NCBI GenBank assembly: GCA_007376445.1
Contig: VMGF01000002.1
Span: forward strand, 167,928 to 231,927
Length of the DNA: 64,000 nt
Reading direction: 5' to 3'
DNA from: Parcubacteria group bacterium Gr01-1014_3
Lineage (GTDB): Bacteria; Patescibacteriota; Minisyncoccia; UBA6257; WO2-44-18
Part shown: piece by piece, positions 9,868 through 12,808 of the stretch
Numbering within the stretch: position 1 is the stretch's first letter
How the letters are laid out: each line of letters starts with the position of its first letter
Translations under genes and position numbers: made by a program
Notes under the pieces: model-generated
Databases searched by the model: none
Told to the model about the DNA's origin: nothing
What the model saw: only the letters and a program-made list of their open reading frames with translations

Positions 9868-9942
9868 TCCCGTTAGAAACCGCGCCCGCGCTTAGCGCGC
9901 CCCGGAGGGGCCTATGGGCGGGCTGTTTCTAACGGGATTGAC
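9868..9942. mobile_element. Palindromic mini-element (CCCGTTAGA family), copy 2
   Basis: tcccgttagaaac...gtttctaacggga followed by TTGAC; near-identical to 57845-57919. Confidence 0.8.
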
Positions 9943-9966
9943 ATATATAATAGAATATGGTATAAT
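9938..9966 (+). promoter_or_regulatory. Consensus sigma70 promoter
   Basis: TTGACA (9938-9943) - 17 nt - TATAAT (9961-9966). Confidence 0.8.
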
Positions 9967-9975
9967 ATAGGAGTT

Positions 9976-10485
9976 ATGATTTACTATGACAACATCCCCC
10001 ATTATTCGCAGTTCCTGGATATCCCGCGCGTTGAGTGGCGGGCCGAAGGCTGTGGAATCGCGGCTTTAGCCATGGAAATTGAGTTCTATAAGCCAAAAAG
10101 CGTGTCTATTCCTTCCCTGCTCTCCCAGGCTATTAAGTCTGGCGCGCATGAGCTTGGTGTCGGCTGGAAGCATAAGCAGTTAGCCGATCTCGCTGAATTG
10201 TATGGCTTAGACGGAATTAACTATGACCTTACCGGCATGAGCAAGCAAGAAGCTTTTGGTGAGTTTAAGGATCGCTTAGCGGAAGGACCGGTGATCGTAT
10301 CCGTCCACAATAAGTTCGATCCTAGGGCTGCTCTTGGCCACATGGTAGTGGTAACCGGTATGGATAACGGTTACGTCTTTTATCACGATCCGGCCTATGA
10401 TAATAAGATCGCGAAAATGATCTCTGAGAAAGGATTTATGAAGGGTTGGAAACAGCGCTTCATCACGGTGCGAGAAAAATCCTAG
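9976..10485 (+). CDS. C39-like cysteine peptidase
   Basis: YSQ...GCGIAALAM, GHMVVVTG, YHDP. Confidence 0.85.
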   Translation: MIYYDNIPHYSQFLDIPRVEWRAEGCGIAALAMEIEFYKPKSVSIPSLLSQAIKSGAHELGVGWKHKQLADLAELYGLDGINYDLTGMSKQEAFGEFKDRLAEGPVIVSVHNKFDPRAALGHMVVVTGMDNGYVFYHDPAYDNKIAKMISEKGFMKGWKQRFITVREKS

Positions 10486-10487
10486 AA

Positions 10488-10519
10488 CTAAAAAGACCCC
10501 GCTTGCGGGGTCTTTTTAG
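10488..10519. terminator. Bidirectional intrinsic terminator
   Basis: aaaaagaccccgc-tt-gcggggtcttttt. Confidence 0.85.
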
Positions 10520-10600
10520 TGAGGACTCCAGTATCTATACCAAAGCTTTCGCCCTGCTCGGTTCACCCTTACGAATAAACCTTCTGTTCCAAAATCCTCA
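10520..10600 (-). ncRNA. Candidate structured small RNA (three-way junction, two GNRA tetraloops)
   Basis: P1 UGAGGAUUUUGG/CUGGAGUCCUCA; P2 GGUUUAUUC-GUAA-GGGUGAACC; P3 CAGGGC-GAAA-GCUUUG; TTGACA-17-GAAAAT upstream; terminator directly downstream. Confidence 0.55.
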
Positions 10601-10739
10601 TTCTTATTTTCAAAAATAAATGCATCAGTGTCAAGGTAGTCCTTGGGGATAACTATTCCACTATTCATGCGCCTTTCCTTATTCGCCCATTCGTACGAAT
10701 AAGGCCGTAAGAGAAAATAAAAAAACCGCGGTTAGGCGG

Positions 10740-11177
10740 TTATTTTGCTTCTTTCTTCAGCTTTTTCAGTTCGGCCTTCAGTTCATTAAAATCATCGAAA
10801 ACACCGGTCGCGAAAAGATACATCACGTCCCAGCGCTCTGGGTCATCCACTAGAATATAGCCCCTTTTGCCTTTTCCAAGATGAACTCCCAGCTCCAGGT
10901 GCCCAGACTTTCCGGCCGGCATCTGAAGAACCGCGATGTCGCATTCATCCAGATGCTTCCGGTCGAACTGGAACACATGCTTGGCGGCGTAACCCTTCAG
11001 CGCTTCTTTGAAACTATGTCCTCTGCCTTTTTCATAATCGCGCCACTTGTCATCCGCTTCCGGACCGGCTGCATACCAGTCATCAAACACTTCAAATCCC
11101 AATTCTCTGATCTGATTTGCCAACTTAGGAACTTCCGGATTTCTCAAAGAGCCTATCAGATAGACCTTCATGGCCAT
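10740..11177 (-). CDS. Nucleoside 2-deoxyribosyltransferase-like protein (phage type)
   Basis: KVYLIGSLRN, FD...LD.CD..VL..PAGKSGHLELG (catalytic-type Glu); SD aaagga before ATG 11177. Confidence 0.7.
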   Translation of the reverse strand: MAMKVYLIGSLRNPEVPKLANQIRELGFEVFDDWYAAGPEADDKWRDYEKGRGHSFKEALKGYAAKHVFQFDRKHLDECDIAVLQMPAGKSGHLELGVHLGKGKRGYILVDDPERWDVMYLFATGVFDDFNELKAELKKLKKEAK

Positions 11178-11281
11178 CTTGATTCCTTTCTTAGAACACC
11201 TCCAATTTAGCAAAGGATTTTAAGTCGCGCAAGTTTGAAATTTTTAAACTTTGAGTTATAATACAAAGCAGTTCTTAATAT

Positions 11282-11572
11282 TCCCCGGTAGCTCAGCGGT
11301 AGAGCAGCTCGCTGTGAAATAGCGCAGCCTCCTAGAGTAATCTAGGTTGAATAACGAGGTGAACTCGGTGAAACCCCTTTGGGGCAATACCGAGCCAAGC
11401 CCAGATGAAAATCTGGGAAGGTGTAGAGACTATCCCGAAAGGGAGTACTCCAGCGAAAGCTGGCGGAAGCGCCTCGATCCGACAAAGGTCGGATATGATA
11501 TAGTCCACCCCTATTAGTAATAGTAGGACAAGTGTAACGAGAAGGTCCCAGGTTCGATCCCTGGCCGGGGAG
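11282..11572 (+). tRNA. trnN: tRNA-Asn(GUU) interrupted by a group I intron (exons 11282-11315 and 11535-11572)
   Basis: Acceptor TCCCCGG/CCGGGGA with G73; D-arm GCTC..GAGC; T-loop GGTTCGATCC; joined exons give anticodon loop CT-GTT-AA. Confidence 0.88.
11316..11534 (+). ncRNA. Group I self-splicing intron (219 nt, no ORF)
   Basis: P1 exon GCUGU / intron GCAGC with U.G at the splice site; P4 CTCGGT..ACCGAG; P7 GACTAT/ATAGTC; terminal G at 11534. Confidence 0.85.
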
Positions 11573-11617
11573 CAAATAAAAAAGCCAAGTATTTCAACTT
11601 GGCTAAAAATTTCACGA

Positions 11618-11905
11618 CTACGCATTGGCCATGAGCATCTGCCGATGGGAATGCTCCTTCTTCATCTTCCCGAGCGTAGTAGTTTCCCATGTCGCGAAAA
11701 GATCATCTGCCTTGAGCCATCCATCATGATTGCTAGAACCGGGACCGAGAACATCGCGCTGCAGCTTACCATCCCAAAACGCATAGCAGATAGTAATGAA
11801 CCGCTTTGACTTCTTATTCCACTGAATTGCTCCCGTCTCATACCCTTTTGGGCGGATAAGGCATCCTTCGTCTTTGGCTCTCTGCATTGCGGTCAAAAAG
11901 TCCAT
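11618..11905 (-). CDS. Small phage-like protein, DUF2829/Tad2-like pattern
   Basis: GGAGG SD 7 nt before ATG 11905; MDF..A...AK..G..IRPKGY...W...DDLFA.W resembles the DUF2829 consensus. Confidence 0.5.
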   Translation of the reverse strand: MDFLTAMQRAKDEGCLIRPKGYETGAIQWNKKSKRFITICYAFWDGKLQRDVLGPGSSNHDGWLKADDLFATWETTTLGKMKKEHSHRQMLMANA

Positions 11906-12021
11906 ATTCATACCTCCTAGAACTTGCCACATATTACAATATAAAATTTTCTATGTCAAATCGCTTGCGCTTGTAAAAACGCTTTGTTAAATTTTAGTCA
12001 GTACATTCAAGGAGTGGCCAG

Positions 12022-12465
12022 TTGAAACTGCCGAACCAATATTGGACCAAGAAAGATATTCAGGATGTTAAGAAGGCGAAAAGTTTTGGCGATCTTTCGG
12101 TGGTAGCAATGCGGGTGGTCGCGCGGATGCCCCAGCCGGTTGGCGAGGTTTGCGGACCGATCACCTCCGGCGGACTCGGCTCACGAGAAAAGAATCTAAA
12201 AGCCTTTAATCAGGCAATCGATAAGCTACGTAAAGCCGGCAACTGCATTTTTGATCAGATTCCGTTTGAGGAAAAGCTTTACGAGTTCACGCAGGCTAAG
12301 TGGTATAAAGGCGGACTTCAGCTCTTGAGTGAGTTTTATCTTCCGATCTTCAAGTCAGGACTGATCGATACTTTCTACTTTATGTCGCTCTGGCACACCT
12401 CAATGGGAGCCAAGTGGGAGCATGATCAGGCCAAGGCGCTTGGGATCAGGATAGTTTATTTATAA
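12022..12465 (+). CDS. DUF4406-like (NDT superfamily) protein
   Basis: CGPITSGG, NL..FN.A...L...G, W..SMGA.WE...A..LG; TTG start with AAGGAG SD. Confidence 0.65.
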   Translation: MKLPNQYWTKKDIQDVKKAKSFGDLSVVAMRVVARMPQPVGEVCGPITSGGLGSREKNLKAFNQAIDKLRKAGNCIFDQIPFEEKLYEFTQAKWYKGGLQLLSEFYLPIFKSGLIDTFYFMSLWHTSMGAKWEHDQAKALGIRIVYL

Positions 12466-12503
12466 AAAAGTCCCCTTCCGCCAGTTGGCGGAGGGGATTT
12501 TTA
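12466..12503. terminator. Bidirectional terminator whose stem is the TCCGCCAGTTGGCGGA repeat
   Basis: aaaaag-tcccct-tccgccagttggcgga-gggga-ttttt between convergent genes. Confidence 0.75.
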
Positions 12504-12505
12504 TT

Positions 12506-12808
12506 TTAGTCGCGCATATTTACTTCATAAGTCTCTCGGTATGATATCACATAGCGTACCGGGATCAATACGACCATACGGCCCGCAGCGCCTTTGGGTA
12601 TGTAGGTTACCCTCAGACAATCTTCGTTCGTAGCCAAAGCTTTGATCGGCTGTTCATCGATCTCGGCGCTCGGGGCTAATTGATAGGCTGGATTCAAAGA
12701 TTCGACAACCAAATCTTCTGGAAGAATGTGCCCGTCCAGCAACCAATCGGAGCCACTCCGCTCAAGATACCAATTGAAAAGGATTACGACCCTGCGAAAA
12801 GACCACAT
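12506..12808 (-). CDS. Hypothetical protein
   Basis: 100-aa ORF with AGGGAGG SD supplied by the repeated leader motif. Confidence 0.6.
   Translation of the reverse strand: MWSFRRVVILFNWYLERSGSDWLLDGHILPEDLVVESLNPAYQLAPSAEIDEQPIKALATNEDCLRVTYIPKGAAGRMVVLIPVRYVISYRETYEVNMRD

Follow-up and report, generated by a model that had tools for sequence, protein, structure and literature searches.

Introduction

6S and CsrB/RsmY are small RNAs that act as protein sponges by mimicking natural substrates. The RNA gene described here is similar to them in having its own promoter and terminator, in a presumed mimicry of a substrate in trans and in an arm that can be repeated. It differs from them in that it has no sequence or structure match to these RNAs, no GGA loops and no open-promoter bubble. 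Mimicry of rRNA in cis is well known from the S10/uL4, S15, L1, L20 and S8 operators, as set out in the accessible part of one source (PMC10931766). As in ribosomal-protein leaders of this kind, an rRNA-like module is found here outside the ribosome, and its partner protein is presumed. However, these leaders act in cis on their own mRNA, whereas the RNA described here has a terminator at P1 and no downstream ribosomal-protein gene.

Comparative screens have yielded orphan non-coding RNA motifs that are likewise covarying, stand-alone and of unproven function (PMC5737381, PMC11109978); the RNA described here is not in Rfam 15. The main texts of these two papers make no mention of Parcubacteria, and their supplementary motif tables might include the RNA. 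Nothing relevant was found in the accessible parts of PMC9297842, PMC13351717 and a preprint (bioRxiv 10.64898/2026.10.21.760802), whose clusters might include the RNA family. In the literature searched, with subscription papers mostly outside its scope, neither a CPR-specific small-RNA family nor a free trans-acting rRNA mimic was found.

This report focuses on an RNA gene in a window of 64,000 nucleotides, which is the whole stretch of DNA that was analysed. The RNA belongs to a real, conserved and apparently undescribed small-RNA family of CPR bacteria. The genes of this family are stand-alone, single-copy and patchily distributed in one class of these bacteria, probably Paceibacteria.

Locus and fold of the RNA in the window

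The RNA gene is flanked by a deoxyribosyltransferase-like gene with its terminator and by the 3' end of a converging C39 peptidase gene, which is also closed by the terminator hairpin of the RNA (Table 1). A terminator scan of the region did not list this hairpin. The predicted gene length is ~115 nt including the terminator, with a core of 80 nt, and transcription is predicted to start near 10600-10602. Taken by itself, the combination TTGACA-17-GAAAAT is near chance, with 5 such sites found and 3.3 expected in 2.3 kb.

Table 1. Features of the RNA gene and its surroundings, in positions of the window
Feature	Position	Strand	Details
Structured RNA core, three-way junction	10520-10600	-	RNAfold, RNAalifold, pair covariation
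P1	10600-10589 paired with 10531-10520	-	11/12 pairs with two-sided changes, 96% of cells paired
J1/2, ACAGAA side	10582-10588	-	G10584 kept in 26/26 copies, A10582 in 25/26
P2 arm: 4 bp, 3x3 loop-E-like loop, 2 bp, GYRA tetraloop	10560-10581	-	GUAA at 10572-10569
P3 arm, length and loop variable, GAAA in the window	10541-10556	-	6/6 pairs with two-sided changes
J3/1, GUAUAGAUA in the window, family consensus R-UA-K-AG	10532-10540	-	Alignments of copies
Intrinsic-terminator-like 14-bp hairpin, usable from both strands	10488-10519	both	Directly 3' of P1
Sigma-70-type promoter: -35 TTGACA 10634-10629, 17 nt, -10 GAAAAT 10611-10606	10606-10634	-	Score 10/12
DnaA-box-like 9-mer, one mismatch to consensus	10644-10652	-	9 nt upstream of -35
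Leaderless 10-codon ORF MRILEQKVYS, incidental	10569-10601	-	Peptide not conserved
C39-like peptidase gene that runs towards the terminator, a neighbour outside the system	9976-10485	+	PF13529, E 1.7e-10
Nucleoside 2-deoxyribosyltransferase-like gene, own terminator, not part of the system	10740-11177	-	PF05014 weak, E 0.0055

A preliminary description of this locus, whose letters and coordinates are as written, had proposed an ~80-nt three-way junction that forms on the minus strand alone. The three-way junction was recovered by RNAfold as both the minimum-energy and the centroid structure of the minus strand. Positions 10515-10605 fold at -30.1 kcal/mol on this strand (z -4.72; 1 of 200 shuffles equally good), and at only -13.6 kcal/mol on the plus strand (z -1.58). 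A descriptor of the architecture had one match in the host genome (808 kb, 93.7% complete) and none in a reversed control. The RNA is single-copy in this genome, and every holder searched has one copy per genome. DNA contigs of three sequencing runs span the RNA with 0-1 differences; in one of these runs the flanking genes are ~7% different, and its contig pieces cannot be assigned to one organism. Among the sequencing runs listed as containing the locus, none is of RNA.

Several other elements were observed nearby. A perfect 9-bp hairpin with a 10-nt loop lies at 10677-10704 (-), between the upstream gene's terminator and the promoter of the RNA. A GC-rich inverted repeat with CCCGTTAGA ends (9868-9935) resembles a small mobile palindrome, and just after it the C39 peptidase gene has a 12-of-12 promoter at 9938-9966 (+). 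On the other side, 10740-12808 holds an island-like group of small genes around tRNA-Asn (deoxyribosyltransferase-like, DUF4406 and two unknowns). The deoxyribosyltransferase-like gene has viral relatives that are 46-68% identical, and the RNA was absent within 2 kb in the loci of 14 of its 16 viral relatives (14 searched). The tRNA-Asn itself (11282-11572, +) is interrupted by a group I intron of 219 nt (57.8 bits in Rfam) and is miscalled as Thr by ARAGORN with introns. The host genome has one more match that resembles a group I intron (G000:C4:21640-21964, -), with 35.9 bits and below the Rfam cut-off.

Distribution of the family

A covariance search across CPR genomes, which the preliminary description had proposed, led to 26 distinct structure-conserving copies that are 37-67% identical to that of the window; they come from CPR genomes and one metagenome contig. 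The first covariance model was built from the window's single sequence and was followed by two rebuilding rounds. The single-sequence model matched 5 of 150 genomes of the order; four matches were stand-alone copies, and the fifth (L190) was 23S rRNA and was excluded from all models. In genome samples that overlap one another, with the larger searches run under stricter filters, the rebuilt models placed copies in 6/150 genomes of the order, 3/150 of the class, 2/5 and 2/6 of two families, 1/19 and 16/105 of two other orders of the same class, and 0/150 of a phylum-wide sample. Of three weak matches among 40 near genomes, one proved to be a tRNA, one a coding region and one just a simple hairpin. 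Since all three were spurious, none of 20 genomes in the window's own family gave a true match.

Pattern scans contributed one more genome record and one metagenome contig, once matches that failed the model had been dropped (11 of 14 from metagenomes and 17 of 23 from genomes, with duplicates counted once). All six true genome records from these scans are labelled as CPR bacteria. The exact junction pattern gave 16 non-self matches in 400 genomes, about the same number as a reversed control, and 120 matches in viral sequences, none with the fold; four further patterns found no true copy in viral contigs. BLAST of the locus returned only terminator or AT-rich fragments from 61 related genomes and no match from phages.

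Conserved structure and covariation

In a model-fitted alignment of the 26 copies, 94.6% of cells are paired and 23 of 24 pairs show two-sided changes, counts that are biased by the fitting of the alignment to the structure. None of 500 shuffles reached the observed pairing, and slid controls were also far below it. RNAalifold also returned the identical junction when given 11 copies aligned with MAFFT alone. Furthermore, the sense strand folds better (lower z) than the antisense strand in all 11 copies. The covariation across 26 copies establishes that the fold is not due to chance and, together with the folding bias of the sense strand, bears out the earlier suggestion of selection at the RNA level.

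Conservation is highest at the P2 tip and the junction bases. The P2 loop sits 8-10 nt from the junction and is GYRA in 26/26 copies (GUAA in 13, GCAA in 12 and GUGA in 1), and the family consensus of the tip is CUA CC GUAA GG GAAA. P3 is GNRA-closed in just 16 of 26 copies, so that of the two GNRA tetraloops first described, the one on P2 is a constant of the family and the one on P3 is not. The continuous pairing first drawn for P2 also needs revision: the arm is real, but its central three pairs are mostly non-canonical in relatives and its middle is a loop there. The 12 bp given for P1 are supported, but P1 probably reaches farther, into the junction. In 10/11 copies the base 5' of GAA forms a pair with the one 3' of UA (A-U, C-G, G-U or U-G), a count in which L195 was included by eye (automatic anchoring was off). 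J1/2 and J3/1 would probably extend P1 by this one covarying pair and a GA/UA loop-E-type module with putative non-canonical pairs. At the other end of P1, a G-C pair close to its base is kept in 23/25 copies. The P2 arm is present twice in three copies from one genus (L403-L405). This four-way variant with two P2 arms (1501-1610) includes one member that is a single-contig genome.

Promoter, terminator and neighbouring genes

The promoter and terminator of the RNA are family traits. A sigma-70-like promoter in register was found in 24/25 copies and at 7.2% of control positions (score of at least 10 in a scoring scheme of our own), and these promoters end 3-6 nt ahead of P1. A hairpin and T-run directly after P1 were found in 24/26 copies and at 9.7% of control positions. 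The terminator hairpins of different copies have unrelated sequences.

A DnaA-box-like 9-mer occurs at most 75 nt upstream in 18/25 copies, against a background of 1.7% of random windows and 4 of 78 strong promoters of the host genome; TTATCCACA, which we take to be the DnaA-box consensus, was used for the comparison. The box-plus-promoter pattern is found at 15 sites in the host genome (14 besides the RNA gene), so it is not unique to the RNA gene. A DnaA-box-like 9-mer a few bases upstream of the -35 seems to be a common promoter design in these genomes, and none of the literature found describes such a design.

No Pfam family recurs among 31 neighbouring proteins from 18 of 26 loci (one per close lineage where possible), and the C39 peptidase is not among the neighbours of other copies. 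Synteny around the RNA is common to close kin only. The downstream genes vary in identity and direction and are often on the opposite strand. These neighbours, which share no family, agree with the earlier view that there is no gene for the RNA to regulate in cis. The peptide MRILEQKVYS, if it is considered as a functional product, fared differently. Among 11 copies, 3 lack a start codon in the first 16 nt, and in the others the encoded peptides (3-52 aa) are unrelated. The promoter and terminator of the RNA, the lack of a shared neighbour and the lack of a conserved peptide together argue for a stand-alone RNA gene.

Comparison with known RNA classes

The preliminary description had recognised no tRNA, SRP, 6S or hammerhead RNA in the sequence and had proposed an Rfam scan. 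No Rfam family fits: Rfam 15 gave no gathering-threshold match at the window's RNA or in the loci of 21 other copies, and 9 stretches of the RNA alone, scanned by E-value, yielded a single partial match of 16 bits (E 1.3). No match to an Rfam ribozyme family appeared with the E-value limit set at 10. RNase P RNA and tmRNA are present in the host genome, but it has no RF00169 match and no PF00448 (SRP54) at 93.7% completeness, nor an RF00013 match; the RNA also has no long hairpin with a central bubble, as 6S RNA would. The RNase P RNA is divergent (G000:C1:18153-18523, -; 63.9 bits against a gathering score of 100).

Other classes were also rejected. A riboswitch or ribosomal leader is contradicted by the terminator at P1 in 24/26 copies and by downstream genes that differ and are often opposite. 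A MITE- or REP-like repeat does not fit with one copy in the host and in every holder, and an antitoxin RNA of a type III toxin-antitoxin system does not fit with the lack of a shared gene family behind the terminator. A small ORF was dismissed since start, frame and peptide are not conserved. Likenesses to hairpin ribozyme, RNase P, c-di-GMP and C4 RNAs were considered and dropped for lack of an Rfam signal. A search for antisense targets found complementary matches of at most 13 nt in the genome, with the terminator left aside.

Likeness to 23S rRNA domain I

The P2 tip is closest to one hairpin of 23S rRNA, nt 458-472 in E. coli numbering, which we take to be helix 23. A profile of 26 P2 tips ranks this hairpin first in the whole host genome (19.2 bits; next 15.1). 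In E. coli rRNA it is the first of 52 GNRA-closed sites (next 10.6; 0 of 500 shuffles). A search of operon leaders with a tight P2-module pattern had 23S as its sole match in the host genome. Common to both is GUA-CC-GYRA-GG-GAAA. The P2 arms match the 23S tip at 7-13 of 14 positions, and the window's copy (7/14) is among the most divergent. However, the P2 tip caps a 4-bp stem and the rRNA hairpin lies in a multibranch loop. The P2 loop is GYAA in 25/26 copies and the 5' GU varies; the remaining copy (L401) has GUGA, the same as the rRNA's own. An A stands in 28/29 P2 tips where the rRNA has G465. No proteins touching helix 23 were found in the literature searched.

A second likeness involves the H18-H20 junction. 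Nt 281-359 of 23S rRNA are the primary site of uL24 and uL4, uL24 grips both strands at the H18-H20 junction, and the fold of this junction is a very common Y shape, according to the accessible part of PMC6426284. This junction is also ~80 nt long and three-way, and its GAA and (G)UA strands sit on top of the closing helix. The RNA differs from it in several respects. It is a free gene outside rRNA, and it lacks the UGGAAA loop of the 5-bp H19, the GAUACA linker and the short, UGACA-looped H20. Instead, P2 is longer, each side having 8-10 nt, and ends in a GYRA loop, the linker is 2-3 nt, and P3 is longer with a variable loop. The best full-length rRNA matches of the whole model fall on H18-H20 in 3/6 23S sequences (nt 280-360 in E. 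coli); their scores are weak (12-19 bits, E 0.013-0.8), and the other three, including that of the host, have none.

Modules of the GUA/GA type occur eight times in one 23S rRNA (PMC2919703, in the part accessible), and the P2-type module is recurrent in RNAs (accessible parts of PMC2919703, PMC8450098 and PMC3273805). Since such modules recur and Y-shaped junctions are common, the likeness to rRNA may be convergent. The RNA replaces no lost piece of rRNA, because the 23S rRNAs of the host and two other holders (G048 and G531) keep both H18-H20 and nt 458-472. Two irregular 23S genes were observed. In the host, one locus (G000:C2:398555-400406) encodes a 23S rRNA with an insertion of ~80 nt between the H16-like and H18 regions, and the contig end truncates the gene. 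G048 has two very different 23S sequences on separate contigs (L241 on C16 and L240 on C3), of which one may be a contaminant.

Proposed function and alternative explanations

Because the P2 arm resembles a piece of 23S rRNA, the RNA may be a free decoy for ribosome-building proteins. More generally, it is proposed to be a trans-acting folded RNA, a decoy or scaffold that would bind an early large-subunit protein or assembly factor via rRNA-like surfaces, a tentative reading to which a probability of about 0.35 is given. The RNA would fold into a compact Y-shaped junction, in which the GYAA loop of P2 probably docks on conserved GG/CC pairs near the P1 base, following general receptor rules. 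It would act in trans by its shape, without base pairing, and would display two surfaces like those of 23S domain I, the helix-23-like arm and the H18-like GAA/RUA junction. Candidates for the bound early 50S protein or assembly factor are uL24, uL4, bL34 and uL23. Binding would buffer free protein or throttle 50S assembly. The twofold P2 arm in one genus is as expected of a repeated binding unit. Both uL24 and bL34 occur in holders and in a non-holder alike. A co-occurrence test of low power compared 985 host ORFs of at least 50 aa with the holders G556 and G632, the non-holder G004 and 280 kb of the ~745 kb of a further non-holder, G022. It left 10 candidates, none convincing by eye as a partner of the RNA.

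The main competitor is a folded RNA with a non-ribosomal partner (protein, RNA or small ligand), in which the modules would only build the fold and the junction would be the pocket. All of the family-level evidence fits this explanation. Loop-E and GNRA modules are recurrent building blocks (PMC2919703 and PMC8450098, in the parts accessible), the fixed P2 length and the conserved P1 G-C pair fit internal docking, and the internal loop of P2 tolerates much change. On the other hand, the 8.6-bit lead of one rRNA hairpin over other GNRA sites and the arm duplication in L403-L405 are left unexplained, and the low-power test found no co-occurring partner gene. This explanation was rated nearly as likely as the decoy or scaffold, the preferred reading; its share of probability is slightly the larger of the two but is spread over unnamed partners, with no mechanism named.

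The other alternatives are all improbable to differing degrees. The RNA could be a decoy that diverts rRNA- or tRNA-directed nucleases or toxins (from the host, a competitor or triggered by phage) by offering a sarcin/ricin-like arm with a bulged G and a GNRA loop. This would suit the GUA/GAA core beside the GNRA loop in the P2 consensus, an arm that can be doubled and a patchy occurrence typical of defence (16/105, 6/150 and 0/20 genomes). However, the P2 loop is closed by two pairs, as in nt 458-472, whereas the sarcin/ricin loop is closed by one; the bulged G is kept in 15/29 arms only, and no defence genes are among the neighbours examined, so that this decoy is considered improbable. Even less likely is a new class of self-cleaving or trans-cleaving ribozyme. 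The size, the compact fold and the junction with conserved purines would be like those of small ribozymes, but few junction bases are invariant, no positive sign of catalysis accompanies the lack of an Rfam ribozyme match, and with a promoter of its own and a terminator set right at P1, cleavage would have nothing to release. Slightly less probable again is a helper domain for self-splicing introns that would act in trans like P5abc or group II domain 3 and dock via its GNRA arm. The architecture recalls P5abc, the tRNA-Asn gene contains a short group I intron 700 nt from the RNA, and 4/5 holders tested have group I introns (G593 has none; holders only were included). Yet these bacteria commonly carry group I introns, no intron was seen at the loci of 21 other copies, and the RNA matches no Rfam intron family. 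The least probable explanation is a cis element, small-peptide gene, split rRNA piece or mobile palindrome, for which a start codon at position 2 in 5/11 copies and the rRNA-like motifs might speak. Unrelated peptides, variable neighbours, intact 23S rRNA and one copy per genome speak against it and have largely refuted it.

In a more specific form of the decoy reading, the RNA would be a free, separately transcribed miniature of 23S domain I surfaces that titrates a 50S-assembly initiator (uL24, uL4, bL34 or an assembly factor) in trans under a DnaA-box promoter, coupling ribosome building to replication. This form as a whole is doubtful, and within it the DnaA-box-like site as a link to the replication cycle is speculative.

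Significance

CPR genomes are tiny, and in that of the host the searches run found neither SRP nor 6S RNA. In genomes so small, a dedicated small-RNA gene with a conserved structure probably has a useful role. With 26 copies, a model, boundaries and a natural double-arm variant, the family is now well defined for direct tests. If the RNA binds no ribosomal protein, it would still be a novel compact RNA fold. Trans binding of ribosomal proteins, if it takes place, would represent a novel way of regulating ribosome assembly. Furthermore, if the coupling to replication is true, host-dependent CPR bacteria would link the building of ribosomes to their replication cycle.
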